NCBI GenBank assembly: GCA_963422375.2
Contig: OY729427.2
Location: 32,001 to 96,000, forward strand
Source: Bryobacterales bacterium
Lineage (GTDB): Bacteria > Acidobacteriota > Terriglobia > Bryobacterales > UBA6623
DNA: 64,000 nucleotides
Reading direction: 5' to 3'
The notes under the pieces are model-generated. The model did not search any database. It saw nothing but the letters and a program-made list of their open reading frames with translations, and was not told where the DNA came from. The position numbers and the translations under genes were made by a program. Below are positions 6,110-56,650 of the stretch, piece after piece; position 1 is the stretch's first letter, and each line of letters starts with the position of its first letter.

Positions 6110-7718
6110 CAGCGGTTCTAGATTTGGCCGTCAAGGGGGTGCGTGAACGTTGTTTCGGAGGATGAGGTGAATAAGTTGACCGAGAGGTTGCGCTCCCGAG
6201 GCCGCCCCGCGGGAGCGTCGGACGGCGGGCAGGGCCGTGGCGCGGCCCGCGTCGCGAGTCCGCGGAGTGCCGAGCCCGCGGCCGGACGCACTCCGGCGGT
6301 AGCCGGCTTTGACGGCCGGCCGCTCGCCGGACGCTGCCGGCACGAGACTGCGTGGAGTCCAGGCCCCGGCCGCCTGGCAGCCCGGAGGCGCGCGTCCGGC
6401 GCGCACCGCCGCCAGCAGCGTCGGCCGGTCCGGGAAGCGGAACCAGCGCAGCGCGACCTGCAGCTCCCGGAACAGGGCGCGGCGCGTGACTGGCTGGCGC
6501 CGGCACTGCTGCCACAGCGCGCAGACGCACTGCAGCACGGCGCGGAGCGCGAAGGCGAACAGGTTCGGCACGGCCGGCACGTTGGCCAGCCCTTCCTTGC
6601 CGTGCCCGAAGTTGCGCTTGCAGTTGCGGCCGTGCCGCGCCAGGCAGTTGAAGCCCTCGTTCTCGATCTGCCAGCGCGCCCGGCCGGCCCGCGCGATCGG
6701 CTCCGCGTTGTCCGCGGTGACCGCGAGACCGGTGGAGAAGCTGCTGGCGCAGGTGCGCTTGCCGTCGCGCTCCACGGCGTACTCGATCCAAGTGCCCTGC
6801 AGGGCGTCGCGGCCCTTGCGCAGGAGCACCGCGGCCGTCCGGCGGAAACGGTGCCGCTCGGACCGCTTGCCCTTCCCGCGCCGCGGCGGCCTCGCAGACC
6901 GACTGGCAGCAGTACAGGTCGTCGCCCGGCAGGACGGGGCGGCAGGCCTGCAGCCAGGCGCCGCGAGCGGCGAGCCAGCGCTTGGCGGCGTTGCGCTCGC
7001 AGTCCCGCTTGCGCTCGTCCTCGCTCATGTCGGCGCGGGTCGCGGCCGCGTCCTGCTGCGGGCGCACGAACTCGCGCATCAGCGGCAGGACCGTGGCGTG
7101 GCCGTCGGCCACCGCGGTGGCCGCGACCATGGTGTGGAAGTGATGCGGCCGGCGCTCGCTGCCGACGCGCCGCACCGAGCACTGCGGGCAATGCACCCTG
7201 TCGGAGCGGTGGAACCGGACGCCGTCCGGAGCCGCCGGCAGGCGCTCGTCGAGGCGCTGGAAGGGCTCGAGCGCGCCCTGCGCGGCCACGGTTGCGAGGC
7301 ACCGCCGGAACGGCGGGTCGAACGCGGCCGGGTCGCGGTCGTCGAGCAAGTTGCGGATCCGGTTGTCGCAGGGGATGCGGCCCGCGCCGCACAGGGTCCG
7401 GCAGTTGGAGCGCGAGCCGTCCCGCTCCATGCGTCGCTGGAACGCGAGCAACGACTCGCACCGGGTGCAGAAGCAGGCCGGGGCGCACCAGGGCGCAACC
7501 GGCGGCGTCGCTGACCTCGTAGCGCTTGTTGCTGCGACCCTCGCGCCGGTCGGGCCGGCCGGCGGCCGTCTCGCGGAAGGCGCTCGGCAGCGCGTCCAGG
7601 ACATGGGGCATTTACCCTAGCTCACAAATTCCGCAAGCAAAAGTCAAGTGCCAGACTGCCTTCGACACCTTTCTCAGACACTCTGGAAATCCCAAAATGC
7701 CCAAATTGAGAATCGCTG
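6110..7718 (-). mobile_element. ISNCY-like DDE IS, copy A (defective, ~120-bp internal deletion)
   Basis: TIRs CAGCGGTTCTAGATTTGG / CCAAATTGAGAATCGCTG; perfect 9-bp TSD GCGCGCCGT (6101-6109, 7719-7727); motifs DCERNAAKRWL and RARWQIENE. Confidence 0.92.
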
Positions 7719-8031
7719 GCGCGCCGTCCGAATGAGCGCGCCACCCGACAGGTACGTCCCGAAGGCCGTGCTCGGGGGCGTGTGCAGGCGAATCTGCCAG
7801 ACGGGCCTGCGATCCTGCCACGCGCGTAGGGCGTGGAAGCACAGCGTCGCCGAGGCACGCTGGCTGGCGCCGTGCTCCGTCCCGTCGTCCGTCCAGTCCG
7901 CTTCGCCGCCAGCGGACTGGGATGGGAGGCAATGCAGCGCAGGGGCTTAGGACGGGTTGCAGCAATGTCCGTCGACCTTGGAGTTCGTATCTGTCCGCCA
8001 ACCCGGGCCCGCCCGCGCTCGCAGGCGAAAC

Positions 8032-8081
8032 TTCTGTTGGCTGCATCGCGCATACATTCTGTTGGCTGCATCGCGCATACA
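8032..8081 (+). repeat. Perfect 25-bp tandem duplication upstream of the cytochrome c gene
   Basis: TTCTGTTGGCTGCATCGCGCATACA twice (8032-8056, 8057-8081), ending in a TACAAT -10-like box. Confidence 0.9.
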
Positions 8082-8101
8082 ATGGACGGCGACACTTCCC
8101 G

Positions 8102-8926: not shown

Positions 8927-8935
8927 AGCAGCCCA

Positions 8936-10513: not shown

Positions 10514-10581
10514 CGTCCCCGCCGGCCAGCGGGATTCCGCCTTGGATAGTAGTCCCGGGACCTGCTCCGGCCCCGAGCCAT

Positions 10582-10644: not shown

Positions 10645-10797
10645 CACGAATCGGTTTACTTGCGTATCATTTTCGTTTCGATAGAGCTGGAAATTGCCAG
10701 CAGAGGTCGCACGATTTCCATATTTTCGTCCGTATGCGCAACTGGAACAGGTCAACTAGCGTCTATTTTCGTACTGTGTTCACTTTGGAGGTGCGAT

Positions 10798-15893: not shown

Positions 15894-16822
15894 CAGCGAT
15901 TCTAAATTTGGCCATCAACGGGGTGCGTGAACGTTGATTAGCTGATTATGAGGATGAGATGAACCACTTTACCGAGAGGTCGCTCTAATAAGGCTGCCTC
16001 GCGGGAGCGTCGGACGGCTGGCAGGGCCGTGGCGCGGCCGCCGCAGCGGGTCGGCCGAGTGCCGAGATCGCGGCCGGACGCGCCCCGGCGGTAGCCGGCT
16101 GCCACGGTCGGCCGCTGGCCGGACGCTGCCGGCACGAAGCTGCGCGGAGTCCAGGCCCCGGCCGGGGTCGGCCGGCAGCCCGGCGGCGCGCGTCCGTCTC
16201 TCACCGCCACCAGCAGAGTCGGCCAGTCCGGGAAGCGGAACCAGCGCAGCGCGGCCTGCAGCTCCCGGAACAGGGCGCGGCGCGTGACTGGCTGGCGCCG
16301 GCACTGCTGCCACAGCGCGCAGACGCACTGCAGCACGGCGCGGAGCGCGAAGGCGAACAGGTTCGGCACGGCCGGCACGTTGGCCAGCCCTTCCTTGCCG
16401 TGCCCGAAGTTGCGCTTGCAGTTGCGGCCGTGCCGCGCCAGGCAGTTGAAGCCCTCGTTCTCGATCTTCCAGCGCGCCCGGCCGGCCCGCGCGATCGGCT
16501 CCGCGTTGTCCGCGGTGACTGCGAGACCGGTGGAGAAGCTGCTGGCGCAGGTGCGCTTGCCGTCGCGCTCCACGGCGTACTCGATCCAAGTGCCCTGCAG
16601 GGCGTCGCGGCCCTTGCGCAGGAGCACCGCGGCCGTCCGGCGGAAACGGTGCCGCTCGGACCGCTTGCCCTTCCCGCGCCGCGGCAGCCAGCCGGTCGAG
16701 CGCACCGCGCCGCTCCCCCGCCGGCTCTCCGGCACCTCGTGCAAGTGCTTGCGGGATCCGGGCTTGCCTACCCGGATGTAGTCCATGCCGGCGGCCTCGC
16801 AGACCGGCTGGCAGCAATACAG

Positions 16823-18250
16823 GGGAATTATATATCTGAGTGCCGAGGGAATCAAGTCGGCAAATTATCAAGCCATTATAAAATTTCATATTTCTTCCGA
16901 CTTTCCGTTGACATTATATGGTGTTTCTTGGTAGAATAGTTCCAGTAAGGGATACCGTAAATGAAGAAACCAGGTCCCGGAAAGTGGTTCCGTAAAGGCA
17001 TCACATTGATCGAAGTGATCGCCATGTTCCCCGATGACGAATCCGCGGAAAAGTGGTTCGCCTCCATGCGCTGGCCGGACGGTCCCGCGTGCCCCCGCTG
17101 CCGCGGCTCCAGCGTGCAGTCCGACGCGGCCCACCCTTCGATGCCGTACCGTTGCCGCGGCTGCGGCAAGCGCTTTTCGGTGCGCACCGGCAGCGTGATG
17201 GCCGACACCGAGCTCGGCTACCGCACCCGGGCCGTCGCCCTGTTCCTGCTGACCACCGGCATCAAGGGCGTCTCGAGCATGAAGCTGCACCGCGACCTGG
17301 ACATCAGCCAAAAGTCGGCCTGGCACCTGGCGCACCGCATCCGCGCGTGCCGGGAGCGGGATCGGGGCCCGTTCGCCGGCCCGGTGGAGGTGGACGAGAC
17401 CTGCGTCGGCGGCAAGGAACGCAACCAGCACGAGAGCAAGAAGGCCCGCGCCGGGGGCGACCTGCAGGGCTTCGTGCGCGGCCGGGTCGCGCCGGGCGCG
17501 CAGCTCTACTCCGACGAGGCGGCGGCCTGCGCCGGCATGGCGGAGTTCACGCACGAAGCCGTCAGGCACTCCGGCGGCGAGTACGTGCGCGGGGCAGCGC
17601 ATGCGAACGGCATCGAATCGTTTGGGTCCCTGTTCAAGCGCGGCCTGTACGGAACCTATCACCGGATGAGCGTCCGTCATCTCGGCCGCTACCTCACGGA
17701 GTTCGCGGGACGGCGCAACGACCGCGACTGCGACACGGAGGAACAGATGCGGCGCATGGCGCGGGGCTTGGTCGGCCGGACGCTGACCTGCCGGCAGCTG
17801 ACCGGCAAGGCCGCGGTCGCGGCCTGAGCGGCGCCCGCCGCGCCGAGCGCGGCAGCCCGCCGCGGGCGCGCGCTGCACGCTCGGTACGAGGGGTGCACCG
17901 GATCCGGAAGGCCCCGGCGCGACCCCGGTCCGGTCCGGACCGGCCATGCAGGCCGTCGAGCGCCGGGGATCCGCTGTCTTCGGCCCTCGCAGGGCCTGCA
18001 AGCGGCTTGCAAGGGGTGCCCTGCCACCGCCAACCGGGTTCCACCGGGGCAACCGGGGCATGCGCGGCGGCCTCTCTAGTCCCTTCCTCATCAAATCCGC
18101 TGGCAGGCTCGATTCAGATACGATCCCACACCCCACCCCTCTGTGCCCGCCGCGGCCGCACTCGCATGACCCCAGCTCGACACCCACCTCCCTGCTCACA
18201 GCAGTTCTAGTCGGACCATGGCGTTGTCGGCACTCAGATATATAATTCCC
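16823..18250 (+). mobile_element. IS1595-family IS (GGGAATTAT ends, ISNwi1-like); transposase 16961-17827 with internal deletion
   Basis: TIR GGGAATTATATATCTGAGTGCCGA; 8-bp TSD CAATACAG/CAATACAA; Zn ribbon CPRC..CRGC, VEVDET, SDE, NGIES. Confidence 0.93.
16908..16937 (+). promoter_or_regulatory. Sigma70-like IS1595 transposase promoter
   Basis: TTGACA-N18-TAGAAT with extended TG; conserved at 43139-43168 and 55341-55370. Confidence 0.7.
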
Positions 18251-19114
18251 CAATACAAGTCGTCGCCCGGCAGGACGGGGCGGCAGGACGGCATCCAGTC
18301 GCCGTGCGCGGCGAGCCAGCGTTTGGCGGCGTTGCGCTCGCAGTCCCGCTCGCGCTCGTCCTCGCTCATATCGGCGCGGGTCGCGGCCGCGTCCTGCTGC
18401 GGGCGCACGAACTCGGGCATCGGCGGCAGGACCGTAGCGTGGCCGTCGGCCACCGCGGTGGCCGCGACCATGGTGTGGAAGTGATGCGGCCGGCGCTCGC
18501 TGCCGACGCGCCGCACCGAGCACTGCGGGCAATGCACCTTGTCGGAGCGGTGGAACCGGACGCCGTCCGGAGCCGCCGGCAGGCGCTCGTCGAGGCGCTG
18601 GAAGGGCTCGAGCGCGCCCTGCGCGGCCACGGTTGCGAGGCACGGCCGGAACAGCGGGTCGCACGCGGCCGGGTCGCGGTCGTCGAGCAAGTTGCGGATC
18701 CGGTTGTCGCAGGGGATGCGGCCCACGCCGCACAGGGTCCGGCAGTTGGAGCGCGAGCCGTCCCGCTCCATGCGCCGCTGGAACGCGAGCAACGACTCGC
18801 ACCGGGTGAAGAAGCAGGCCGGGGCGCACCAGGGCGCAACCGGCGGCGGCGCTGACCTCGTAGCGCTTGTTGCTGCGACCCGCGCGCCGGTCGGGCCGGC
18901 CGGCGGCCGTCTCGCGGAAGGCGCTCAGCAGCGAGTCCAGGACATGGGGCATGCACCCTAGCTCACACATTCCGCTAGCAAAAGTCAAGTGCCAGACTGC
19001 CTGCGACACCTTTCTCAGACACTCTGGAAATCCCGGAATGCCCAAAATTAGAATCGCTGGACGGAGCCCCTTAGGGCCGTCCGAGTCACCCGCTGGTCCC
19101 TCCGGATCTAATTA

Positions 19115-19369
19115 GTGCTTGTGACAAAACCCCTGAACTCTGGCCTGATCAGCATTTCATACTACATCCTGATGTCGGATGGATCTCCAAACACAACATA
19201 TAGGGTCCAAGGTCGGAAGTTGCTCAGCCGCCAATCGCGAAGATTTCCGCGCTCTACCCAGAATTGGCAGGATTTTGGACTAGTCGTAGCATTCCAGCGA
19301 AATCTTCGCCTTGAGAGATTGGACCTAATGCCTTTTTTGTCAAGGGGATACGAGTTTTTTCACGGGCAC
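19115..19369. mobile_element. 255-bp MITE with ISDol1-like ends, copy 1
   Basis: Ends GTGCTTGTGACAAAAC / GTTTTTTCACGGGCAC; 6-bp TSD TAATTA; close homologs at 37194 and 44576. Confidence 0.9.
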
Positions 19370-20295
19370 TAATTAGAGCGTCGCAGCACCTCTAGCTGCC
19401 GCTCCGCCTCCCTCCACCGGCGCTCGGCCTCTTGCCGCGCCCGCGCCTCCTCGACCCTCTGCCGCGCCTCTTGGTCCCGCTGGCGCTCGGCCTCTTGCCG
19501 CGCTCGCGCCTCCTGGCCCACCCGGCGCTCGGCTTCTTGGCGCGCGCGCGCCTCCTGGTCCACCCGGCGCTCGGCCTTCTGGCGCTGCCGCGTCTCCTCG
19601 ACCCGCGCCCGCGCCTCCTCGCTCAGCGTCCGCAGGTATTCCCCCCTGACCGGATCCCAGATGCGCAGGCGCTGCGCGATGCCGTCGTAGCGCAGGTCCA
19701 AGCCCAGCACGGCGCTGCGGACGGACAGTTCCGCGCCGGGCAGGCGTTCGGCCGGCAGCGGCTCGTAGCGGCCGCCCTTCAGGCGGTCGCCCGCCAGGCG
19801 CGCCGGCAGCAGGCCGCCCATCGGGTCGTACCGGAAGTATTCGCGCACCCCCAGCCGCGCGTACAGCGGCGGCTTCTCGTGCAGGTCCGCGTCGACGGTG
19901 CCGGGAGAGGCGACTTCCAGCACGAAGTCCGGGGGCTTGCCCTCCTCCCACACGAAATAGGACATGCGATTGTCTCCCGGAACGCCCAGCGACACCATCA
20001 CGTCCGGGACGACCCTGCGCTTGGGACGATTCTCGACGTAGTACACCAGCAGGTTGTTGGCCACCAGCACGTCCTCGCGCCGCTCGAAGTAATGGGCCAG
20101 CATGGCCGCTGCATCGCGGATCGCCCTTTCCTGGAAGGTGTTGTCCGCCATCGGCCGACCGTCCGAGCTAGGGTACTGCGCCTCGGCTGCCGCAGGCTGC
20201 GGGGCGCGCCACCGCGGAGGGGGCGGGTCCGTCGGCGCGCGGCGGTCGCGGGCCGGGGCGAGCGGCGGGAATTGGTCGATCTGCTTGCCCGGCAT
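19369..20295 (-). CDS. Uma2-family (PD-(D/E)XK) endonuclease with C-terminal repeat coiled coil
   Basis: YPSSDGRPMADN, VPDVMV, WEEGKPPDFVLEVASPGT, GVREYFRYDP; 14-aa repeats (EARARQEAERR). Confidence 0.92.
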   Translation of the reverse strand: MPGKQIDQFPPLAPARDRRAPTDPPPPRWRAPQPAAAEAQYPSSDGRPMADNTFQERAIRDAAAMLAHYFERREDVLVANNLLVYYVENRPKRRVVPDVMVSLGVPGDNRMSYFVWEEGKPPDFVLEVASPGTVDADLHEKPPLYARLGVREYFRYDPMGGLLPARLAGDRLKGGRYEPLPAERLPGAELSVRSAVLGLDLRYDGIAQRLRIWDPVRGEYLRTLSEEARARVEETRQRQKAERRVDQEARARQEAERRVGQEARARQEAERQRDQEARQRVEEARARQEAERRWREAERQLEVLRRSN

Positions 20296-20505
20296 GCGGC
20301 CTGGCGACCGGTCGCTTCGGTGCCGACACAGTATAGCGGATTAGTGCGGGGAGGCTCCCCCGGAGCGGCGGGCCGGAGCATGACGGGCCGCGAGGCGGCA
20401 CGGCTCGGCTGACGCGGGTGCTCCGGGCGGCGAGCGAGACGCTGGTCGGCAGGCTCAGCCGGGCGCGGGCGGTCGGTTCGGTAGGGACGCGCCCGTGTTG
20501 CGCCG

Positions 20506-22079
20506 CAGCGGTTCCAAATCTGGCCGTCAAGGTGGTGCGGGAACGTTGCATAGGCGGACTAGGCGAACCACTTGACCGGGAGGTCGCGCTAGCGAGGCCG
20601 CCCCGCGGGAGCGTCGGATGGCTGGCAGCCCGGCGGCGCGTCCGTCTCGCACCGCCGCCAGCAGAGTCGGCCGGTCCGGGAAGGGGCACCAGCGCAGCGC
20701 GGCCTGCAGCTCCCGGAACCAGCCGCGGCGCGTGACCAGCTGGCGCCGGCACTGCTGCCACAGCGCGCAGGCGCACCGCAGCACGGCATGGAGCGCGAAG
20801 GCGAACAGATTCGGCACGGCCGGCACTTCGGCCGGCACGGCCTTGCCGTGCCCGAAGTTGCGCTTGAAGTTGCGGCCGTTTCGCGCCAGGCAGCTGAGCC
20901 CCTCGTTCTCGATCTTCCGGCGGGCCCGGCCGGCTCGCGCGATCCGCTCCGCGTTGTCCGCGGTGACCGCGAGACAGGTGAAGAAGCAGTTGGCGCAGGT
21001 GCGGATGCCGCCGCGCTTCACGGCGTACTCGATCCAGGTGCCCTGCATGCGGTCGCGGCCACGGCGCAGGAGCACCGCGCCTTACCGGCGGAAGCGGTGC
21101 CGCTCGGACCGCTTGCCCTGCCCGGGGCCGCGGCAGTCAGCCGGTTGATCGCACAGCGCCGCTCGCCCGCCGGCTCTCCGGCACCTCGTACAAGCGCTTG
21201 CGGGATCCGGGCTTGCTTAGCGGGATGCAGTCCATGCCGGAGGCCTCGCAGACTGGCTGGCAGCAGTACAGGTCCTCGCCCGGCAGGACGGGACGGCGGG
21301 CCTGCAGCCGGGCGCCGTGCGCGGCGAGCCAGCGCTTGGCGGCGTTGCGCTCGCAGTCCCGCTTGCGCTCGTCCTCGCTCATGTCGGCGCGGGTCGCGGC
21401 CGCGTCCTGCCGCGGGCACGCGAACTCGGGCATCAGCGGCGGGACGGTGCCATGGCCGTCGGCGACCGCGATGGCCGTGACCAGGGCGTGGAAGCACTGC
21501 GGACGGCGCTCGCTGCCGACGCGCCGCACCGAGCCCTGCGGGCAATGCACCGTGTCGGAGCGGTGGAACCGGACGCCGTCCAAAGCCACCGGCAGGCGCT
21601 CGTCGAGGCGCTGGAAGGGCTCGAGCGCGCCCTGCGCGGCCGCGGTTTGCAGGCGCAGCCGGAACAGCGGGTCGAACGCGGCCGGGTCGAGGCCGTCGAG
21701 CAAGTTGCGGATCGGGCTGTCGCAGGGGATGCGGCCCACGACGAACAGGGTTCGGCACTCGGAGCGGGCGCCGTCCCGCTCCATGCTCCGCTGGAACTTG
21801 AGGAATGACTCGCATCGGGTGCAGAAGCAGGCCGGGGCGCACCAGGGCGCAACCGGCGGCGGCGCTGACCCCGTAGCGCGTGTTGCGACCGGTGCGACGG
21901 TCAGGCAGGCCGGCGGCCGTCTAGCGGTAGGCGCCCAGGAGAGAGTCCAAGACATGGGGCATACATCCCAACTCACAATATCCGCGAGGAAAAGTCAGGT
22001 GCCTGCCTGCGCCAGACCGCCTTCGACACCCTCCTCAGACACTCTGGAAATCCCGGAATGCCCCTATTTGGAATCGCTC
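20506..22079 (-). mobile_element. ISNCY-like IS, copy C (more diverged, degenerate ends)
   Basis: Ends CAGCGGTTCCAAATCTGG / CCTATTTGGAATCGCT; frameshifted transposase at about 20527-21962. Confidence 0.88.
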
Positions 22080-22189
22080 GTCAAGTCCTGAAGCAAGGAC
22101 ATCTAGGTTGTAGATTCCGACTTCCCAATTCATATTCTGAATGAATCGTTCGCTCCTTCCTAAGAATTCGACTTGTGCATTGGGCGGCT

Positions 22190-22480
22190 CCACAACGCTC
22201 GCCAGGTTCCGGAGCTTGACCAGGACACGGACCTCGTCATGGAAGCGGCGCACTCCATCCTCGTATGACTCCGTCCAAGCCAGGCCTCGCGGGCACATTG
22301 CAGAATGGTCTCCCAGCGCCGGCTCCGTTGGCATATACTCCTTGATCTCCACGGTATCTCCCAGCCTGTCGTGACGCGCACGATCCCGAAACCGCCCTGC
22401 CCGATCAGTCGGAGCAAGGTGTACCCGTGCAGGGATGTGCCGGGGCTTAGCGTGTCCTGAGGTATATCGCTGTTAGCGCT
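22190..22480 (-). pseudogene. Ser/Thr protein kinase N-terminal fragment
   Basis: LSPGTSLHGYTLLRLIGQGGFGIV, then after a frameshift ARHDRLGDTVEIKEYMP..RFHDEVRVL. Confidence 0.75.
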
Positions 22481-22676
22481 GGTCCTCGTTGTCTCGGTCG
22501 CGCGCCCCGAAGTGCCAGTTCGAGGATGGCCGCTACGCAACCAAGACCGTGACTCTCGGGTGTCCGGCAGGCTCGTGCCCGGCGGACGCATCTGCTCGCA
22601 GAGTTGATCTGACCTAGCGGCTGGAGAGCTCGCGCACGCTTGATCGTCATGCGCCGGACTAATTCTAGCCGGCGGC

Positions 22677-24408
22677 CAGCGATTCTCAATTTGGGCATTT
22701 GGGGATTTCCAGAGTGTCTGAGAAAGGTGTCGAAAGCAGTCTGGCACTTGACTTTTCCTTGCGGAATTTGTGAGCTAGGGTGTATGCCCCATGTCCTGGA
22801 CTCGCTGCCGAGCGCCTTCCGCGAGACGGCCGCCGGCCGGCCCGACCGACGCGACGGTCGCAGCAACAAGCGCTACGAGGTCAGCGACGCCGCCGGTTGC
22901 GCCCTGGTGCGCCCCGGCCTGCTTCTGCACCCGGTGCGAGTCGTTCCTCGCGTTCCAGCGGCGCATGGAGCGGGACGGCTCCCGCTCCAACTGCCGGACC
23001 CTGTTCGGCGTGGGCCGCATCCCCTGCGACAACCGGATCCGCAACTTGCTCGACGACCTCGACCCGGCCGCGTTCGACCCGCTGTTCCGGCCGTGCCTCG
23101 CAACCGTGGCCGCGCAGGGCGCGCTCGAGCCCTTCCAGCGCCTCGACGAGCGCCTGCCGGCGGCTCCGGACGGCGTCCGGTTCCACCGCTCCGACAGGGT
23201 GCATTGCCCGCAGTGCTCGGTGCGGCGCGTCGGCAGCGAGCGCCGGCCGCATCACTTCCACGCCATGGTCGCGGCCACCGCGGTGGCCGACGGCCACGCC
23301 ACGGTCCTGCCGCTGATGCCCGAGTTCGCGTGCCCGCAGCAGGACGCGGCCGCGACCCGCGCCGACCTGAGCGAGGACGAGCGCAAGCGGGACTGCGAGC
23401 GCAACGCCGCCAAGCGCTGGCTCGCCGCTCAGGGCGCCTGGCTGCAGGCCTGCCGCCCCGTCCTGCCGGGGGACGACCTGTCCTGCTGCCAGCCGGTCTG
23501 CGAGGCCGCCGCGGCGGCCGGCATGGACTGCATCCGGGTAGGCAAGCCCGGATCCCGCAAGCACTTGCACGAGGTGCCGGAGAGCCGGCGGGGGAGCGGC
23601 GCGGTGCGCTCGACCGGCTGGCTGCCGCGGCGCGGGAAGGGCAAGCGATCCGAGCGGCACCGTTTCCGCCGGACGGCCGCGGTGCCCCTGCGCCAGGGCC
23701 GCGACGCCCTGCAGGGCACTTGGCTCGAGTACGCCGTGGAGCGCGATGGCAAGCGCACCTGCGCCAACAGCTTCTTCACCGGTCTCGCGGTCACCGCGGA
23801 CAACGCGGAGCGGATCGCGCGCGCCGGCCGGGCGCGCTGGAAGATCGAGAACGGGGGCTTCAACTGCCTGGCGCGGCACGGCCGCAACTTCAAGCGCAAC
23901 TTCGGGCACGGCAAGGAAGGGCTGGCCAACGTGCCGGCCGTGCCGAACCTGTTCGCCTTCGCGCTCCGCGCCGTGCTGCAGTGCGTCTGCGCGCTGTGGC
24001 AGCAGTGCCGGCGCCAGCCGGTCACGCGCCGCGCCCTGTTCCGGGAGCTGCAGGTCGCGCTGCGCTGGTTCCGCTTCCCGGACCGGCCGACGCTGCTGGC
24101 GGCGGTGCGCGCCGGACGCGCGCCTCCGGGCTGCCAGCCGGCCAGGCGGCCGGGGCCTGGACTCCGCGCAGTCTCGTGCCGGCAGCGTCCGGCCAGCGGC
24201 CGGCCGTCAAAGCCGGCTACCGCCGGAGTGCGTCCGGTCGCGGGCTCGGCACTCGGCGGACCCGCGACGCGGGCCGCGCCACGGCCCTGCCCGCCGTCCG
24301 ACGCTCCCGCGGGCGGCCTCGGGAGCGCAACCTCTCGGTCAACTGATTCACCTCATCCTCCGAAACAACCTTCACGCACCCCCTTGACGGCCAAATTTAG
24401 AACCGCTG
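22677..24408 (+). mobile_element. ISNCY-like IS, copy D (full length, 1732 bp, frameshifted)
   Basis: TIRs CAGCGATTCTCAATTTGG / CCAAATTTAGAACCGCTG; ATG at 22784; 10-bp duplication at 22898-22917 shifts the frame. Confidence 0.92.
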
Positions 24409-35562: not shown

Positions 35563-37460
35563 GGGAATTATATATCTGAGTGCCGACAACGCCATGTTCG
35601 ACGAGAACTGCTGTGATCAGGGAGGTCGGCGTCTGGCTCCGGTCATTCGAATGCGGCCGCGGTAGGCACGGAAAAGTGGGATCGTATCTGAATCGAACCT
35701 GCCAGCGGAATGGACGAGGCACGGATAAGAGAGGCCCCCTCGCATGCCCCGGTGGAATCCGGTTGGCGGTGGAGGGCACCCCTTGCAAGCCGCTTGCGTG
35801 CCCTGCGAGGGCCGAAGACAGCGGCTCCCCGGCGCTCGACGGCCTGCATGGACGGTCCGGGCCGGACTCGGGTCGCGCCGGGGGATTCCGGATCCGGCGC
35901 GCCCCTCGCACCGAGCGTGAAGCGCATCGAGCGTGAAGAGTGCGTCGGCAGCCCCCCACTGCCGCGGCTCCAGCGTGCAGTCCGGCACGGCCCACCCTTC
36001 GATGCCGTACCGTTGCCGCGGCTGCGGCAAGCGCTTTTCGGTGCGCACCGGCAGCGTGATGGCCGACACCAAGCTCGGCTACCGCACCTGGGCCGTCGCC
36101 CTGTTCCTGCTAACCACCGGCATAAAGGGCGTCTCCAGCATGAAGCTGCACCGCGACCCGGGCATCAGCCGGAAGTCGGCCTGGCACCTCGCGCACCGCA
36201 TCCGCGCGTGCCGGGAGCGGGATCGGGGCCTGTTCGCCGGCCCGGTGGAGGTGGACGAGACGTACGTCGGCGGCAAGGAGCGCAACCAGCACGAGAGGAA
36301 GAAGGCCCGCGCCGGGCGCGGGCCCGTCGGCAAGACGTCCGTGGCGGGCGCGCGGGACCGCGCCACGAACGCAGCGGCCGCGCAGCCGCTGCCGGGTACG
36401 ACCAAGGGCGACCTGCAGGGCTTCGTGCGCGGCCGGGTCGCGCCGGGCGCGCAGGTCCGCTCCGACGAGGCGGCGGCCTACGCCGGCATAGCGGAGTTCC
36501 CGCACGAGGGTGTCCAGCACTCCGGCGGCGAGTACGTGCGCGGGGCGGCGCATACGAACGGCATCGAGTCGTTTTGGTCCCTGTGCAAGCGCGGCCTGTA
36601 CGGCACCTATCACCGGATGAGCGTCCGTCATCCGGGTCGCTACCTCACGCAGTTCGCGGGACGGTGCAACGACCGCGACTGCGACACGGCGGAACGGATG
36701 CGGCGCATGGCGCGGGGCCTGGTCGGCCGGACGCTGACCTACCGGCAGCTGACCGGCAAGGCCGCGGTCTCGGCCTGAGCGGCGCCCTCCGAGCTGAGCG
36801 CGGCAGCCCGCTGCGGACGCGCTCTTCACGCTCGGTGCGCTTCACGCTCGGTACGAGGGGCGCACCGGATCCGGAATGCCCCGGTGCGACCCCGGTCCGG
36901 CCCGGACCGTCCATGCAGGCCGTCAAGCGCCGGGGATCCGCTGTCTTCGGCCCTCGGAGGGCACGCAAGCGGCCTGCAAGGGGTGCCCTCCACCGCAAAC
37001 CGGATTCCACCGGGGCATGCGAGGGGGCCTCTCTAATCCGTGCCTCGTCAATTCCGCGGGCAGGTTCGATTCAGATACGATCCCGCCTTGCTGTGCCTAC
37101 CGCGGCCGCATTCGAATGACCCGAGCCAGACGCCGACCTCCCTGATCACAGCAGTTTTCGTCGGACATGGCGTTGTCGGCACTCAGATATATAGTGCTTG
37201 TGACAAAACCCCTGAATTCTGGCCCGATCAGCATTTCATACTACATCCTGAGTTCGGATAGATCTCCAAACACAACATATAGGGCCCAAGGTCGGAAGTT
37301 GCTCAGACGCCAATCGCGAAGATTTCCGCGCTCTACCCAGAATCGCCAGGATTTCGGATTAGTCGTAGCATTCCAGCGAAATCTTCGCCTTGAGAGATTG
37401 GACCTAACGCCTTTGTTGTCAAGGGGATACGAGTTTTTTCACGGGCACTATATAATTCCC
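35563..37460 (+). mobile_element. Rearranged IS1595 (ISNwi1-like) with two right ends; 5'-truncated transposase at about 35955-36778
   Basis: 35563-35950 is the reverse complement of the element's 3' region; the right TIR is split by a MITE; no TSD. Confidence 0.85.
37194..37448. mobile_element. 255-bp MITE, copy 2, inside an IS1595 TIR
   Basis: TSD TATATA (37188-37193, 37449-37454). Confidence 0.92.
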
Positions 37461-41201: not shown

Positions 41202-43059
41202 GTGCTTGTGACAAAACCCTGATATTTTGGGTATTCTAGCTGATAGATCCCCACCAAATGATAGCTATGGAAGAAACAGTCTGCGCCAATTAACCGAACT
41301 CATTGCCTCATATTCCATTTTCATTGTGAGGATACAGTTAGTTCTGTTCTAGTTGTACACTTTTCCTGAACCTTGTCTCTTCAAGGTTTCAATTCAGGGC
41401 AATTCAGATCGCTGCCGACTGCCTATGCAGCCAGCGGCAAGGGTCCCGTCTTGAGACGCTCCCTCTCTCTGTCGCGCACGATCCGGCCCGCTCGATGCAC
41501 GTTCGCCGCCAGGACCGCTAGCCCGATCATCCGCTCGAATCCCTCCGCTCCCCGGTCCATCACCCTGTCCGGACCGCGGCACTCGAGATTGTTGATCGCG
41601 GACTCCACGGCCGGGTGCGCCTGCCTCGCTGCCACGAATTCGGGCGCGCATTCCGTCGCCTTCGCCGCCTTCGACAGCCTCCCCTTCCGCGGCATCGCGT
41701 GGCACGACAGCAGTTCCGCCAAGCGCGTCCGGTTCGCCGGGCTGCGAAAGCCCTTGTCGAAGCTGCAGCTCGACAACCCCGCGTACAGCCCCTGCGCGCC
41801 CTCGACGATTCCCACCGCTACGTCCGCGTCGCTCCCCTTGCACATCACTTCGTGATTCATCACGAATCGGTGCTCGCTTTCCACGATGCATACCGGAACG
41901 CCCGGCTCCACCGGCACCCCCGCTTTTCCTTTCACGCACCAGCGCGTGTGTTCCTCGAAGATCGAGAACACTTGCTCCTCGTGCGGGATCTTCTCCCCCC
42001 GCAGCACGCGCCGCTCCACCGGGTCCGCCAGGAGCTGCACGCACCCGAGGTAACTCCTTGCCGCTCGCAAGGTTCCCTCGTCTTCCCCGGCCTGCGCCAG
42101 GGCCGCCAGCGCACCCTCCGCCCGCCGCGCTATCTCCAGGGCCGCCTCCAGGTACGACCGCACCCTCTCCGGGTTGCCTTGCCTCCTCTTCGCCTGCCGC
42201 ACCCGGTTGAATTCCTGCTTCAGCGTCTTCGGCAGCCGCGCGCTCTGCCGCCAGCCCGCGATACCGCGCCCCTTGCACAGCGGCGCAATAGAGCGAATCA
42301 GGCAGCGCAACGCGTCCCGCAGCAGACTCACCTCCGTCGGGTAATGCACGTTCGTTTCCACCGCGAAAGAGTCGCACCGCGCCTTCAGCGGATCGCCTTC
42401 CTCGCGCCCCGCCAGCGCGTGCCCTTCCTGCACCACCAGCTGATTGATTTCCGCGAGGAGGTCGGGCGTGAGAAGCTTCGGATTCCGGTTGACTGTCCGG
42501 TAGCTGAAGACCTGCTCGTCGAGCGTCGCGTTCAGACCGAGGAAGCGCCGGACGTCCGCGTGCTTGTTCGCCAGCTCCGTCACGCGGCCGTAGTCGCAAT
42601 TCAATCCCTGCTTGAGCAGGCCCGGGACGAGAATATTCCACAGCTGCATGCCGGGACGACCGACAGCAGGGTTGATCCTGCCGGACTCGCCTGCGGAAGG
42701 ATCGCTTCCGTTCTCGCCGTTCCCGCCGTTCCCGCTACTCTCACCGAGGCCGAGGATACGGCTCTCGAGCAGTCCGAAAACCCTGTCCCGCAACTCCTCG
42801 GTGGGATAGATGAATTGTATTCCTAGCAAGATGGCCGGGATATCTTCGCGGGAACGGACGTCGAGATCGATATCCTCGATTGCAGTCCGGCCAAGGGTGA
42901 GCTGGCTCTCCTGAACGGTCCTCACGGGCGGTTCCTCAACGAAGATTGTCGCACAACCCCCGGAAACGCGCAAGCCGGCCCGGATCGCCCCGATCTTCGT
43001 CCCACGGACCTGCTGCAACCTCCCGGAAACTAAGAGCTTGCGCGTTCTGTCACAAGCAC
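41202..43059 (-). mobile_element. ISNCY-family (ISDol1-like) IS; transposase 41423-42925
   Basis: TIR GTGCTTGTGACA(A/G)AAC; TSD TATATA; motifs GRPGM, RCDSF.VETNVHYPT, SFDKGF, AVESAINNLE. Confidence 0.88.
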
Positions 43060-44749
43060 TATATATCTGAGTGCCGAGGGAATCAAGTCGGCAAATTATC
43101 AAGCCATAATAAGATTTCATATTTCTTCCGACTTTCCGTTGACATTCTGTAGTGTTTCTTGGTAGAATAGTTCCAGTATGGGATACCGTAAATGAAGAAA
43201 CAAGATCCCGGAAAGTGGTTCCGTAAAGGCATCACATTGATCGAAGTGATCGCCATGTTCCCCGATGACGAATCCACGGAAAGATGGTTCGCTGCCATGC
43301 GCTGGCCAGGACGGCCCCGCGTGCCCCCACTGCCGCGGCTCCAGCGTGCAGTCCGGCACGGCCCACCCTTCGATGCCGTACCGTTGCCGCGGCTGCGGCA
43401 AGCGCTTTTCCGTGCGCACCGGCAGCGTGATGGCCGACACCAAGCTCGGCTACCGCACCCGGGCCGTCGCCCTGTTCCTGCTGACCACCGGCATCAAGGG
43501 CGTCTCGAGCATGCAGCTGCACCGCGACCCGGGCATCAGCCGGAAGTCGGCCTGGCACCTGGCTCACCGCATCCGTGCGTGCCGGGAGCGGGATCAGGGC
43601 CTGTTCGCCGGCCCGGTGGAGGTCGACGAGACCTACGTCGGCGGCAAGGAACGCAACCAGCACGAGAGCAAGAAGGCCCGCGCCGGGCGCGGGCCCGTCG
43701 GCAAGACCCCGGTGGCGGGCGCGCGGGACCGCGCCACGAACGCAGCGGCCGCGCGGCCGCTGCCGGGCACCGCCAAGGCCGACCTGCAGGGCTTCGTGCG
43801 CGGCCGGGTCGCGCCGGGCGCGCAGGTCCGCTCCGACGAGGCGGCGGCCTGCGCCGGCATGGCGGAGTTCCCGCACGAAGCCGTCAAGCACTCCGGCGGC
43901 GAGTACGTGCGCGGGGCGGCGCATACGAACGGCATCGAGTCGTTTTGGCCCCTGTTCAAGCGCGGCCTCTACGGAACCTATCACCGGATGAGCGTCCGTC
44001 ATCCGGGTCGCTACCTCACGCAGTTCGCGGGACGGTGCAACGACCGCGACTGCGACACGGCGGAACAACGGCGGAACAGATGCGGCGCATGGCGCCGGGC
44101 CTGGTCGGCCGGACGTTGACCTACCGGCAGCTGACCGGCAAGGCCGCGGTCGCGGCCTGAGGCGGCGCCCTCCGCGCCGAGCGCCGCAGCCCGCTGCCGA
44201 CGCACTCTTCACGCTCGGTGCGCTTCACGCTCGGTGCGAGGGGCGCGCCGGATCTGGAATCCCCCGGCGCGACCCGCGTCCGGCCCGGACCGTCCGTGCA
44301 GGCCGTCGAGCGCCGGGGATCCGCTGTCTTCGGCCCTCGCAGGGCACGCAATCGGCTTGCAAGGGGTGCTCTCCACCGCCAACCGGATTCCACCGGGCAT
44401 GCGAGGGGGCCTCTCTTATCCGTGCCTCGTCCATTCCGCTGGCAGCTTCGATTCAGCTACGATCCCACCTTGCTGTGCCTACCGCGGCCGCATTCGAATG
44501 ACCCGAGCCAGACGCCGACCTCCCTGCTCAGAGCAGTTCTCGTCGGACATGGCGTTGTCGGCACTCAGATATATAGTGCCCGTGACAAAACTCGTATCCC
44601 TTTGACAAAAAAGGCGTTAGGTCCAATCTCCCAAAGCGAATATTTCGCTGGAACGCTACGACTAGTCCGAAATCCTGGCGATTCTGGGTAGAGGTCGGAA
44701 ATCTTCGCGATTGGCGGCTGAGCAACTTCCGACCTTGGGCATTATATAT

Positions 44750-47325
44750 CCTGATTACCCACAAGACTCAGCCAAGGTTAGGAGGCGGTAAGGCATGGGC
44801 GGGGTGCGCACGGAGGCGTGGAGCAGGCGGGGGACCAGCGCCTCCAGGTCGTAGCGGCGGTTGAAGCGGTAGCGGAACTCGGCGAGGTACCGCGGCAGGT
44901 GCTTGCCGTCGAGCGCATGGCAGGTTCCCGCCGGGGACTGCTTGACGTTCGCCAGCATCGTGTTGACCCGGACGAAGCGCGAATCCGCGCAGCTCCGCTT
45001 CCCGCCTCCGGTGACGGTCGGCACGTGCTCGCAGCCGGCGCCGGCCACGCCCCGGAAGCAGGCCGGGCCGTCGGAACGCACCTCCGTGCCGGGCTGCAAG
45101 TGCCGCCCGGCCCATGCTGCCAGCGTCTTCTTGCGGCAGCCCGCCACGCCGCTCATGCGCATCCTTGCCGGCTTGCCGGCGGCGGTGACCTGCACGGCGG
45201 CGACGAACGGCGTCTTGCCTGCCGCGCCGCGCCCGCGCTTGCCGCCGGTCCGCTCCCCGCCCCGGCAGGCGTCGTCCACCTGCACGATGCCGCCCAGCGG
45301 CACGCGCTCGTCGCGCTCCTTCATCACTTGCAGGAGCTTGTGCTTCATCTTCCAGGCCGTGTTCCGGCTCACGCCCGGCTGCCGCGCCAGTTCCAGCGAC
45401 GAAACGCCGTGCTGGCCCTGCGTCAGCAGGTGCAGCGCCAGGAACCAGACGGTCAGCGGCAGCTTGGTGGCGGCGAAGATCGTGCCGGCGACGAGGGAGG
45501 TCCGGCGGTGGCAGGCGTGGCACTGCCGGAGCTTGCGGGAGCGGATGCGGCAGTGCCGGCGGGAGCCGCACTCCGGGCAGCGGAAGTCGTCCGGCCAGCG
45601 GGCGTTGAAGACGGCCTGCTCGCATGGCCCCTCGCTGCCGTAGCGCTGCAGGAACTTGCCCAGGCTGAGTCCCTTCTGGAATTGCACGCGATTGCGTTTC
45701 ATCTGAGCCTTTTGCAAAAATCCCGAGCTCATAGCATTATCATTTAGTTAGTCTATTAAGTATTCGATATAATCAATGGAATAGAACTGTAGTAAATGTA
45801 GTTTTAATGGCTTATCATGCGTTTTGAGTTTCCTGGAAATCCCTTGCCATCCGTGCTATTATTGTAATGCAAGCCTAGTAAGCAGCTGGCAGGATTCAAC
45901 GAATATGTCCTTGATAGAAACCGTATCCGCGTACTGGTTCACGTTCCAGCAGGGGCTGTTCCCCTGGCTCGAGCAGGAACTCGGCCCCCTCGGCGAGCGC
46001 TACCGCAGCTTCGTCCAAGCGGTGGAACGGGCGCAGGTCGAGGACTGCCTGCCCGTCGGGCAGGGCGGCCGCGGCCGCCCCCTCGAAAGCCGCGCCGCCA
46101 TGGCGCGCGCCTTCATCGCCAAGGCCGTCTTCGACCAGCCCGCTACGCGCTCGCTGGTCGAGCGCCTGCAGACCGATCGCACCCTGCGCCGACTGTGCGG
46201 CTGGGACCTGGCCGGGGCCGTGCCCGGCGAGGCAACCTTCTCGCGCGCCTGCGCCGAGTTCGCCGCCGGCGAACTGCCCGGACGCTTGCACCAGGCGCTG
46301 CTCGCGCGGACGCTCGACGGCCGCTTGGCAGGGCACGTCTCCCGCGACTCGACCGCCATCGAGGGCCGCGAGCGGCCCGCCGGGAAGCCCGCGCCGGAAC
46401 CGGAGCCGAAACGCAAGCGCGGGCGCCCTCGCAAGGGCGAGCAGCGGCCGCCCGCTCCGCGCCGACTGGCGCGGCAGCCCGACATGAATCTCGAAGCAAT
46501 GCTGCACGACCTGCCGCAGGACTGCGATACCGGCACCAAGCGCAACGCCAAGGGCCGTACCGTCAGCTGGCGCGGCTACAAGCTGCATATCGACGCGATC
46601 GACGGCGGGATCCCGGTCAGCTGCCTGCTCACCTCGGCTTCGCTGCACGACAGCCAGGCCGCGATCCCGCTGGCGACACGGACCGCGGGCCGCGTCGACA
46701 ATCTGTACGACCTGATGGACAGCGCGTACGACGCGGCCGGGATCCGGGCCTTCAGCAAGCGGCTCGGGCACGTGCCGCTCATCGCTGTCAACCCGCGCGG
46801 CCGGACGGAGCTGCAGGCGGATCTGGCACGGGAGGCCAAGGCGCTGCGCAGCGCCGGGCGGGCGGAGCCCGCGCAGCTGCGCTACCGGGAGCGCTCGACG
46901 GTGGAGCGTGTCAACGGCCGCCTGAAGGACGATTGCGGCGGGCGCCGCGTGCGCGTCCGCGGCAAGGTGCTGTGCCACCTCCTGTTCGGCGTGCTCGCGC
47001 TGACGGTCGCGCAGCTCCTGCGCCTGGCGCTCCGAGAGCCCGGGCCGCCGGGACAGCCGCGAAGAGCGCCCGCCCGCAGGGCCGGGCCGGGAGAGCTGCG
47101 CCTGCACGCGGCCGCTCCCCGCAGGAGCGCCCCGCAGCCGAGCAAGCCCAGCTGAAGGGAGTCTTTTTCGGCGAGAATAACAGCCCGGAAACTAGTCGTT
47201 CATGGGGCGGTCAGCCCTCTTTTCTGAATTTTGCAAAAGGCTTATCTGCTAGCCCCTTTCCTAGCAGAGATTTCCGACCTCCTTCAGTATAGCATATCCT
47301 CGGCTGACGTTCGTTGGTAATCAGG
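44750..47325 (-). mobile_element. Second IS1595-family type (CCTGATT ends); transposase 44755-45702
   Basis: TIR CCTGATTACC; 8-bp TSD TTATATAT; MKRNRVQFQKG, CPEC..CHAC, QVDDA, YRFNRR. Confidence 0.9.
45705..47243 (+). mobile_element. IS5/IS1182-like IS; transposase 45905-47155
   Basis: TIR core AGCCTTTTGCAAAA; probable TSD ATCT; motifs SRDSTAIE, GYKLHID, MDSAYD, RSTVERVNGRLKD. Confidence 0.85.
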
Positions 47326-47611
47326 TTATATATTGTGCTTGGAGCTTCAACTGACCTCAGGATGTAGTATGAAATGCTGATCGGGCCAGAATTCAGGGGT
47401 CTTGTCACAAGCACTATATAATTCCCAAAAAGATCGGGCAGCTGCGACCGTCCCGCTGCCGGGATCTCGCCGACTGCACGGACTGGCCCTGCCGTCTACC
47501 TACCCGAAGGCCCCGCTGCGCGACTCCCTGTGCCCGGGGCTTCCGTTTGTCGAGTCCGACTCATGGGGCATGGGCAGGCCGCGCCCGCGGGCAGCTGCAG
47601 GGTCGCACCTC

Positions 47612-53381: not shown

Positions 53382-53891
53382 ATGAGAAGCTCGCCCCGGA
53401 GGAGCATTCTGCAGCGGCTCGCCCGCTCGACGGCAGGAGCGTGGGTGGCCGCGCAAGCGGTCGCCCGCAGGCCGGCCCGAGCGCAACCCGCCGGGCGGAT
53501 CGTCGGGTTCGATCACGTCGCGGCCCCCATGCAGGACGCCGAAGCGATGACCGGCTTCTACAGGTCGCTCGGATTCGTCGTGAACGAGGGGGAGCGGATT
53601 TGCTCGGTCCACTGCGGCGACCACAAGATCAACTTCCACCGCCCGGCCCTTTGGCAGGACACGGGCTTCTCCCTGAGGGCATCCGCGGCGAAGCCCCCAT
53701 GCGGTGACTTCTGCTTCGTCTGGAACGGCTCCGAGGAGGGGCTCGCCGAAATGCTCCGAAGAGCGGGGGCGACCGTGATCGAGGGGCCGGTGGAGTGCAG
53801 GGGCGGACAGAACGCGGGAACCGCCGTCGGCGTCAGCCGATACACCCGCGACCCGGACGGGAACCTGCTCGAGTTCATCGTCTACCGGTGA
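53382..53891 (+). CDS. VOC/glyoxalase-family protein with Tat-like leader
   Basis: FDHVA, FYRSLG, CGDFCF, YTRDPDGNLLEF. Confidence 0.88.
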   Translation: MRSSPRRSILQRLARSTAGAWVAAQAVARRPARAQPAGRIVGFDHVAAPMQDAEAMTGFYRSLGFVVNEGERICSVHCGDHKINFHRPALWQDTGFSLRASAAKPPCGDFCFVWNGSEEGLAEMLRRAGATVIEGPVECRGGQNAGTAVGVSRYTRDPDGNLLEFIVYR

Positions 53892-55255
53892 GGCCGTGGT
53901 CGCTTCGCTCCCGCGGCAGGCGCAGGTCGCCCGACAGCACCAGCCGCCCTTCGCGAACCAGCTCGTCCGCGCGCAGCTCGACCGCCAAGCGCATCTCCTC
54001 GCTGGCGTAACGCGCTCCGAACATGCGCGCGACCTCCCTCGCGCAGTCGGCCAAGCCGATGCCGACGTTGCGCTCGACGGCCCGCAGGATCGCATCCTTG
54101 ACTTCGGGCGGCGGGAGCATATCGACCCTGGGCAGCGACTGCGACCGGACGGAGCTGCGGTCACGGACAGTCACCGCCTCGATCCGGTCGCTGCGGTCAA
54201 GGAATCCCTTGGTCTCGTCGCCGTCCCGACAGACCTGCCCCCCGCCCACCGCCTGGCGAACGGCCGCTCGCGCGACCTCCTGGATTCTCGCCCCCGCCCG
54301 CTGGTAGCCTCACAAGGAGCTGAGACAGCGGACCACCTCGTCGGCGTGGACCGGTCCCTCCTCCTCGACGATTCGCGTCACGCACCGTTCCAGCAATGGC
54401 TCGGGCGCGACGTGGATCTCGGTTCCCTCGCTTTCCGGAACCAGGAACGAGGCTTCCCTGTACGGTTGCGGCGACTGATTCGCCGCCTCGGAGGTGCCGG
54501 ATCGCTGCACCTGGCGACGCGGCTCGGCGGCCGGGGCTATCAGCTCGGCACCTCCGACGGACCAGGCGCGGTCGATCGCCTCCAGCAATTTCGCCATCTC
54601 GTTGTCGCGGTCGTAGAACCAGTCCGTGCTCCAGATGCGGTGAAACCTCCAGCCCTTCTGCTCGAGAACGGTCTGGCGCAGGCGGTCCCGCTCGCGCGCC
54701 CAGCTCGAGGAGTGGTAGCGCGCCCCGTCGCATTCGATCGCTAGCACGAATCGCCCCTCGTCGTCCGGGTCGTACACCGCGAGGTCGATGCGGAATCCGG
54801 CCGAGCCCACTTGCGCGGCCACGCGGTGTCCGTGGCTCTGCAGGGCCATGGCCACGGCTTCCTCGAACGGGCTGTCCATTTCGGCGCCGGTCAGCACCGG
54901 CACGTCCAGCTCGCCGGTCTGGGCGTACTTGAGATAGCGCTTCAGCACCCTCGTGCCGGCATGCTTGGTCGCGTCGACCCGGATCTCGTCGTGGCGGATC
55001 GACGAGAACACGCGGCATCTTTCTCCGCGCCCGCGTGAAGAGGACATTCAGACGCCGCTCGCCTCCCTCGCTCGAGACCGGCCCGAAGTGTTGCGACATG
55101 TAGCCGCCCGCGTCCTTGCCGTAGCCGATCGAGATGAAGATCACGTCGCGCTCTTCGCCCTGGACGTTCTCGAGGTTCTTCACGAAGAATCCCTCGTCCC
55201 TGCCCTCCTTGCAGAACGCCTCGAGCTCGGGAAACTCAGCGCGCATGAATTCCAG
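53875..55255 (-). pseudogene. 3' part of an SF1 helicase + Vsr-like/REase + DUF3320-type protein
   Basis: VKNLENVQGEERDVIF, GERRLNVLFTRAR, DSPFEEAV, IECDGARYHSS, RIWSTDW; frameshifts; cut by IS. Confidence 0.85.
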
Positions 55256-56650
55256 AGGAATTATATATCTGAGTGCCGGGGCAGCCGATTTGGAAAATTA
55301 TCAATCCATAAAGGAATTTGATATGTCTTCCGTATATCTGTTGACAGTCTGTGGAGTTTCTTGATAGAATAGTTGCAATATAGGAGGTCGTCATTGAAGA
55401 AGTCGAAGCAGAAAGGTCCCGGGAAGTGGTTTCGTAAAGGCATCACCTTGATCGAAGTGATTGCCATGTTCCCCGATGACGAATCCGCGGAAAAGTGGTT
55501 CGCCTCCGTGCGCTGGCCGGACGGTCCGGCATGCCCCCGCTGCCGCGGTTGCGGCAAGCGCTTTTCCGTGCGCGCCGGCAGCGTGATGGCCGACACCAAG
55601 CTCGGCTACCGCGTCCGGGCCATGGCCCTGTTCCTGCTGACCACCGGCCTCAAGGGCGTCTCCGGCATGAAGCTGCACCGCGACCCGGGCATCAGCCGGA
55701 AGTCAGCCCGGCACCTGGCGCACCGCATCCGCGCGTGCCGGGAGCGGGACCGGGACCTGCTCGTCGGCCCGGTGGAAGTGGACGAGACGTACGTCGGCGG
55801 CAAGGAGCGCAACAAGCACGAGAGCAAGAAGGCCCGCGCCGGGCGCGGGCCGGTCGGCAAGACCCCCGTGGCGGGCGCGCGGGACCGCGCCACGAACGCA
55901 GTGGCCGCCCGGCCGCTGCCGGGCACGACCGAGGGCGACCTGCAGGGCTTCGCGCGCGGCCGGGTCGCGCCGGGCGCGCAGGTCCGCTCCGACGAGGCGG
56001 CGGCCTGCGCCGGCATGGCGGAGTTCGCGCACGAGGGCGTCAAGCACTCCGGCGGCGAGTACGTGCGCGGGACAGCGCATGCGAACGGCATCGAGTCGTT
56101 CCGGTCCCTGTTCAAGCGCGGCTTCTACGGAACCTATCACCGGATGAGCGTCCGTCACTTGGGCCGCTACCTCACGGAGTTCGCGGGACGGTGCAACGCC
56201 CGCAACTGCGACACGGCGGAACGGATGCGGCGCATGGCGCGGGGCCCGGTCGGCCGGACGCTGACCTACCGGCAGCTGGTCGGCAAGGCCGCGGTCGCGG
56301 CCCGAGCACGGCCTGGCCGGTCCGCTGCGGCCTCTCTTCACGCTCAGTGCGAAGGGCGCTCCGGATCCGGAATCCCGCGCCGCGACCGGTGTCCAGCCCG
56401 GACGATTCATAGATGCAGCCGCCCTGGAAGGGGAGCCTCTCCACGGCAATCCGGGTTCCACCGGGGCGCCCGAGGCGGCCTCTCCGGTCCGTGCGTCGCG
56501 AGATCCGCTTGCAGGCGCAATTCAGATACGAACCGACCTTTCGGCGCCCACCTCGGCCGCACACGAAAGATCCGAGCTAGACGCCGACGTCCCCAAGCAG
56601 AGCAGTTCTAGCCGGATATGGCGTCGTCGGCACTCAGATATGTAATTCCC
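55256..56650 (+). mobile_element. IS1595 (ISNwi1-like), diverged copy
   Basis: Same TIR family; Zn-ribbon deletion between TGCCGCGG repeats; stop TGA->CGA relative to sibling copies; no TSD. Confidence 0.9.

Follow-up and report, generated by a model that had tools for sequence, protein, structure and literature searches.

Why should sibling copies of an insertion sequence (IS) differ repeatedly at the same short motif? The question is raised by a 64,000-nucleotide stretch from a Bryobacterales bacterium (contig OY729427.2; G000:C1:32001-96000, hereafter the window), where copies of several IS families carry CCGG where their siblings carry CTGG or CCAG. An earlier note, made from the letters of the window, ascribed these differences to a CCGG-directed mutator resembling very-short-patch (VSP) repair. 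The context-specific T>C erosion of the IS families is real and strong, and it probably results from biased gene conversion among the copies. The whole account, in which an orphan Vsr resolves this conversion, is the one that we favor on balance.

The genome (6.0 Mb in three contigs, 67% GC) is rich in repeats, which make up 14-23% of every contig with identities mostly of 85-98%. Eight IS families and one sub-family were delineated genome-wide: F1 (104 copies), F2 (88), F3 (46), F4 (25), F5 (21), F6 (20), F7 (15), and F8 (9). Five of them (F1, F2, F3, F6, and F7) are represented in the window. F1 and F2 belong to IS1595 and F7 to ISNCY; F6 is IS5/IS1182-like, with a score under the curated cut-offs, and F3 had no match in Pfam or NCBIfam profile searches.

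Five families (273 aligned copies, at most 267 per site) were polarized with the help of 9-17 homologous rows per family, taken from congeneric genomes (~67-75% DNA identity); F4, F5, and F8 (55 copies) enter only an unpolarized count. A site was kept if it had a non-synonymous change at a residue with 85% or more conservation in the outgroup and if one or more copies still had the ancestral residue; this excludes 42 fixed differences from the spectrum. Two other procedures were dropped. Polarization by the consensus failed in that the consensus often equals the derived state. Nearest-neighbor triplets gave 108/3164 at CTGG (3.1x) with the reverse change also raised (222/13,201), and recombination makes them count one site several times.

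Of the 54 conserved CTGG sites, 32 have a T>C allele in at least 10% of copies, as compared with 9 of 356 T-pyrimidine sites (odds ratio 56, p = 4e-25). The opposite C>T allele reaches this frequency at only 8 of 983 sites. The CTGG signal has the same direction in each of the five families (4/6, 10/13, 12/18, 2/7, and 4/10 sites) and is seen on both strands (26/43 and 6/11). The direction and the CTGG peak proposed earlier are thus supported, and a plain GC bias, under which T>C would be no commoner at CTGG than elsewhere, is excluded by the same comparison. CTGG is, however, not the exclusive context: DTGG (19/58 sites at or above 10%, hereafter hot), GTAGG (6/6), and CTGH (11/88) also rank high. 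CTGG thus forms the peak yet contributes only 32 of the 91 T>C alleles at this frequency (728 sites), and neither a plain GC bias nor a strict CCGG rule describes the erosion. The flanks matter as well, since within CTGG all 12 CTGGG sites are hot, as against 3 of 13 CTGGCG sites.

A second GC-ward class was observed, T>G after T (TTC>TGC, Phe>Cys; AAG>CAG, Lys>Gln), with 19 of 143 sites at or above 10% vs. 11 of 619 for other T>G. Lys>Gln also recurs in the IS1595 copies of relatives (G008/G015 copies L086-L099). A:G repair by MutY is one candidate for this class. C>G at TTC is high at 5 of 14 polymorphic sites vs. 15 of 92, a difference that was not treated as significant.

All the variants cited in the earlier note were located, at most a few bases from where it had placed them. 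The pair at 36087 and 17227 is codon W90 of F1, which reads TGG in 15 and CGG in 87 of 102 copies, and TGG in 24 of 25 outgroup copies. Position 17294, vs. 36155, 43525, and 55682, is L113 of F1 (CCG in 49 copies); 55706 is W121R (20/99 copies), and 56243 is codon 300 (CCG in 5/99). The stop codon has changed from TGA to CGA in 37 of 96 copies. FPDW/FPDR has CGG in 26 of 39 copies, and RWK/RRK is derived in 3 of 41. QLV/QPV is indeed polymorphic (CCG 23, CTG 12), but the outgroup residue differs and the site is not polarizable. Likewise, the ISs described as single-copy are single in the window only: ILVPG, PVEPG, and RGPD belong to F7 (15 copies), ARQPG and SDGPA to F2 (88 copies). The window holds the following IS copies, together with a methyltransferase fragment:

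6110-7750, minus strand: F3 copy (46 copies in the genome), aligned in two pieces that together have 23 derived hot alleles.
15900-19052, minus strand: F3 copy in two pieces (15900-16823 and 18251-19052) on either side of a nested F1 copy.
16825-18248, plus strand: IS1595 F1 copy, W90R at 17228, ancestral L113 at ~17298, internal deletion.
20506-22063, minus strand: F3 copy, derived at 21/38 hot sites.
22684-24402, plus strand: F3 copy, derived at 24/38 hot sites.
26254-27207, minus strand: C5 cytosine methyltransferase fragment; the profile match begins at position 55-64.
35565-37193, plus strand: F1 copy without its 5' part, ancestral W90 at ~36089, L113P at 36159.
41210-43051, minus strand: ISNCY F7 copy, L97P at 42624 (ILVPG), L337P at 41904 (PVEPG), L448P at 41571 (RGPD).
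43060-44575, plus strand: F1 copy, W90R at 43460, L113P at 43530, Q117R at 43542, Y220C at 43851.
44750-45705, minus strand: IS1595 F2 copy, L109P at 45377 (ARQPG), L213P at 45065 (SDGPA), W245R, Y261C.
45713-47234, plus strand: IS5/IS1182-like F6 copy, derived at 2/8 hot sites.
55258-56648, plus strand: F1 sub-family copy, W90R, L113P at 55686, W121R at 55709, W252R, Q292R, stop TGA>CGA.

No near-full copy of F1, F2, F3, or F6 is free of hot alleles (minimum 2, 2, 10, and 1, respectively). The T>C alleles substitute conserved residues, which supports the transposase damage proposed earlier; judging from conservation, the hot alleles would abolish transposase activity. The only pair of F7 copies that is 100% identical (C1:1182972-1184845 and C2:254894-256767) carries 2 of 12 hot alleles, against a median of 7 in the family, and no stop or gap. 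This single event may reflect a recent move or a full conversion, and the least eroded copies may still be moving.

In the F1 copy at 35565-37193, the 5' part is replaced by the element's own 3' end in inverted orientation (384-bp arms, 94%). A Uma2-family gene (window 19369-20295) ends in a tail of 21-bp tandem repeats (19400-19638), and pieces related to the gene or its tail lie at 37192-37450, 44570-44756, and 47327-47425. The 3.2-kb stretch 19505-22678, comprising the end of the Uma2 gene and an F3 copy, has a 99.8% duplicate at C2:2735107-2738280.

Are the eroding alleles inherited, produced repeatedly, or spread from copy to copy? In F1, F2, and F3, where mosaicism was tested, linkage decays within tens of bases. 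Among pairs of GC-neutral and other non-hot markers more than 30 bp apart, the four-gamete test fails for 0.47-0.50 in F1 and 0.56-0.67 in F2. The pattern points to exchange among the IS copies, presumably non-reciprocal. It leaves little room for a descent of all copies from one or a few eroded master copies, mobilized in trans, with the shared alleles merely inherited. Such a descent would suit the shared haplotype blocks and the per-copy load, which is over-dispersed relative to independence in four of the five families. However, four-gamete incompatibility is found in all marker classes, which rules out simple descent, and the ancestral allele segregates at every CTGG site, with derived frequencies ranging from 0 to 99%. 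The specificity for T>C at CTGG would also be left unexplained, and we regard this origin as highly improbable.

Recurrent, context-dependent T>C mutation deserves more attention. Here Vsr would act on replication errors, at a constant rate or in a past burst, and unbiased conversion would only shuffle the products. In E. coli, overexpressed Vsr is mutagenic and stimulates CTAGG-to-CCAGG changes (PMC2715241), and the signal of single-copy DNA and the CCWGG depletion described below would also suit this explanation. Mutation input was separated from spread by means of private alleles (n = 1002), which comprise T>C at 160/87,800 vs. C>T at 447/213,744, so that T>C does not exceed C>T. At CTGG, private T>C amounts to 8/2459, or 1.8x (confidence interval 0.8-3.5), without significant excess, whereas the excess of high-frequency CTGG alleles is at least 50-fold. 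The value per copy is 0.0045 at CTGG sites that are not swept and 0.0031 at T-pyrimidine sites. Moreover, the CTGG sites are bimodal in frequency: 18 of 54 are untouched, 4 are low, 7 lie at 10-50%, and 25 at 50% or more, with none fixed. Both the small private excess and the bimodality count against recurrent mutation. A Moran model was calibrated on cold transitions, with site rates taken as equal, sites as independent, and the start as a star. Drive had the best joint log-likelihood (-524.6); a past mutation burst (-539.1) fits worse by 14 log units and a constant mutator (-565.0) by 40. The directional mutator of the earlier note is therefore not retained, and recurrent mutation is considered unlikely, though not negligible.

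Because private alleles show no significant CTGG excess, sites are bimodal, and copies recombine freely, the data argue that gene conversion is biased in which alleles it fixes. As in GC-biased gene conversion (gBGC), AT>GC alleles are commoner at high frequency than GC>AT alleles without a matching excess in mutation. New C>T alleles stay single more often before a purine (76:9) than before a pyrimidine (44:15; p = 0.024). In F1, r2 at 11-30 bp is 0.02 for hot pairs vs. 0.12 for non-hot pairs; this low value is, indirectly, what short-patch repair would be expected to produce. Segmental duplicates, considered as a test of conversion after duplication, contained no usable IS content.

Bimodality also bears on the question of whether the alleles are base-calling or polishing artefacts at methylated motifs. 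An assembly of three contigs speaks for long reads, no 5-mer is more depleted than CCWGG, and the raw Illumina runs X7 and X8 yielded 0 and 5 partial reads, respectively, all of which leaves room for an artefact. However, rpoB and rpoC keep 29 conserved CTGG sites, with 0 of 18 changes of the erosion type at 1003 conserved residues, and the bimodality is site-specific. In addition, a 98-base contig (depth 63) from run X1 of 2015 (a different sample and study, with no record of its library) covers 43432-43529 and carries the W90R allele, with one other difference. An artefact origin is unlikely, to the point of deserving hardly any credence.

If copies convert one another, erosion should grow with the number of partners. 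The ratio of hot to reverse rates is 8.95 with more than 30 partners, 4.33 with 11-30, and 1.3-2.6 with 10 or fewer, and CTGG polymorphism follows family size (rho 0.86, n = 8 families); detection is easier in large families, and the classes of 2-10 copies are small and not monotonic. This dependence on copy number speaks against recurrent mutation as well. Single-copy DNA is nevertheless not silent. Single-copy remnants have a hot/reverse ratio of 2.55, decayed elements of G023 one of 0.72. At synonymous third positions of 2370 single-copy genes, T is scarce when GG follows (0.05-0.09) and common when CC does (0.25-0.50), in a strand-symmetric pattern that is milder in relatives. Since remnants and synonymous sites both carry the signal, the process must extend beyond repeats, as would fit either a mild bias in mutation or biased between-strain recombination.

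Which enzyme could impose the bias? The search proposed in the earlier note retrieved one vsr gene (C2:2578614; TIGR00632, 154 bits vs. a cut-off of 97.85). In an alignment with E. coli Vsr, the equivalents of E25, D51, H64, H69, and D97 are retained, these being active-site residues as named in PMC12907096. Both catalytic and zinc residues are kept, and the gene is intact. No methylase lies within the 3.2-kb vsr locus. Vsr was found in 24 of 24 genus genomes searched; the MTAP neighbor is shared in 5 of 11 of the relatives' vsr loci, and a C5 methylase is nearby in 3 of 11. A second, DUF559-type Vsr-like gene was not found in the genome (96% complete). The genome search for C5 methylases gave 18 matches, among them the window fragment at 26254-27207, several of them broken or with stops, and none adjoining vsr. 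One methylase gene (L009, C2:1866218-1869631) is abutted or interrupted by IS1595 copies. Three identical ones (L001-L003) are carried by a block of ~30-40 kb present three times with 99.9% identity, at both ends of C1, at C2:1.31-1.35 Mb, and at both ends of C3; this block is either an integrated element or an assembly break.

A CCGG-directed process with a cognate methylase, as postulated earlier, gains no support from motif usage: the observed/expected ratio (O/E) of CCGG is 1.04, its private C>T rate (23/10,924, 1.0x) does not make it a hotspot, and GTAGG is equally hot. CCWGG has an O/E of 0.66-0.70 genome-wide, as compared with 0.91 and 0.97 in fetched stretches of G023 and G045. Among other motifs, GTGCAC has an O/E of 0.17-0.30 here vs. 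0.03 in G023 (loci L220-L233) and 1.01 in G045, and AAGCTT one of 0.52-0.59.

Biased conversion might also be driven by an activity other than Vsr, such as a MutS/MutL preference, a thymine glycosylase of the uracil-DNA glycosylase (UDG) or helix-hairpin-helix type, or MutY. MutS, MutL, MutT-like, and two UDG-family genes are present, together with a MutY-like gene (282 bits, under the cut-off of 286.5). The hot contexts are broader than one 4-mer, and T:G repair cannot produce the T>G-after-T class. On the other hand, hot markers separate over very short distances, and the ranking CTGG > NTGG, NTAGG, CTGN resembles the degenerate site series of Vsr, which counts against a non-Vsr agent. Furthermore, multispecific Vsr enzymes exist (PMC6116569). 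An agent other than Vsr is therefore distinctly unlikely, and Vsr is the likely one.

Biased conversion resolved by orphan Vsr can be pictured as follows. A T>C mutation would arise once, in any IS copy, at a near-ordinary rate. The C-bearing copy would pair with a T-bearing sibling to give a T:G and a C:A heteroduplex. The orphan Vsr would probably nick the T strand of the T:G half, which would then be patched to C; repair of the C:A half would favor neither base. The C allele would then spread across the family as a weak drive, new C>T alleles would be purged, and all copies would end with substituted conserved residues. In between-strain recombination, the same bias would shape the synonymous sites of single-copy genes.

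Several points weigh against this account. The link to Vsr comes from a genomic footprint, not biochemistry. C[T]TGG, the cognate type of E. coli, is cold (0/6 sites at or above 10%). CTGG T>C changes make up 0 of the 42 fixed differences. The private-allele test behind the 1.8x figure omits sites with shared alleles, so that hot (swept) sites are under-sampled, and the wider context (CTGGG vs. CTGGCG) could create site-specific mutation rates that mimic part of the bimodality. Single-copy remnants exceed the G023 elements (49:33 vs. 14:29, p = 0.005), and synonymous contexts are ranked like the IS alleles (rho -0.71, 50 contexts), as a mutation bias would likewise predict. Finally, G021 has Vsr and 10 mosaic F2-like copies (564/1268 pairs incompatible), but CTGG accounts for 0 of 9 of its shared T>C alleles. 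Because G021 combines Vsr and mosaic ISs without CTGG erosion, Vsr cannot be enough by itself, and there must be some difference in family age, expression, or specificity. The mosaicism of G021 (L240-L245) also indicates that IS copies may commonly convert one another ectopically in the genus.

It is debated whether gBGC operates in bacteria, and through which enzyme. The ~330 recombining IS copies of one genome form a population in which mutation input can be separated from fixation bias, and a motif in the bias points to a testable enzyme; if true, the account would give bacterial gBGC a named enzyme and a motif. It also suggests a possible route to self-extinction of IS bursts, in which more copies would mean a faster spread of damaging alleles. 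In such genomes the family consensus is itself degraded, which misleads both consensus polarization and IS annotation. More tentatively, and against our own doubts, orphan Vsr might turn ectopic IS recombination into a copy-number-dependent drive that disables every large family, a repair-based counterpart of repeat-induced point mutation (RIP).

RIP makes new C>T changes in repeats by means of a methylase-like enzyme. The analogy drawn in the earlier note thus holds for the effect, which depends on repeats and is disabling, but not for the direction (T>C here, with C>T at or above 10% at 8/983 sites); moreover, T>C alleles here would be spread by repair, and nothing indicates an origin in defense. 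Gene conversion among non-functional IS copies of Wolbachia is said, in the title of work by Cordaux from 2009 (cited in PMC3004938), to maintain the elements. In both cases dead copies would exchange sequence ectopically, whereas here damaging alleles spread directionally. An enzymatic parallel is E. coli Dcm/Vsr, where VSP repair acts on T:G in CTWGG/CCWGG (PMC2715241) and CTAG depletion has been ascribed to it (PMC5591236). A motif-dependent T:G to C:G footprint, a conserved Vsr active site, and a genome-wide oligonucleotide footprint are shared with that system. By contrast, vsr stands alone here, the peak lies at C[T]GG and [T]RGG with C[T]TGG cold, CCWGG is depleted instead of kept, and the footprint takes the form of skewed allele frequencies within IS families. 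Location away from a methylase and relaxed context recognition recall the unlinked VsrA of Caulobacter (PMC12907096) and the multispecific V.NgoAXIII/XIV of Neisseria (PMC6116569), although the available portions of these two texts make no link to repeat conversion or transposon decay. Bacterial gBGC was argued for by Lassalle et al. (2015; PMC4450053), who invoked mismatch repair; the text does not contain "VSP", "vsr", or "MutY". As in that work, GC alleles are favored at fixation and not by mutation, and deleterious alleles are driven; the present bias differs in that it acts within one genome, between IS copies, is strongly context-specific, and shows at individual sites. In the literature searched, which included few subscription papers, no paper describes IS copies converting one another with a Vsr bias.

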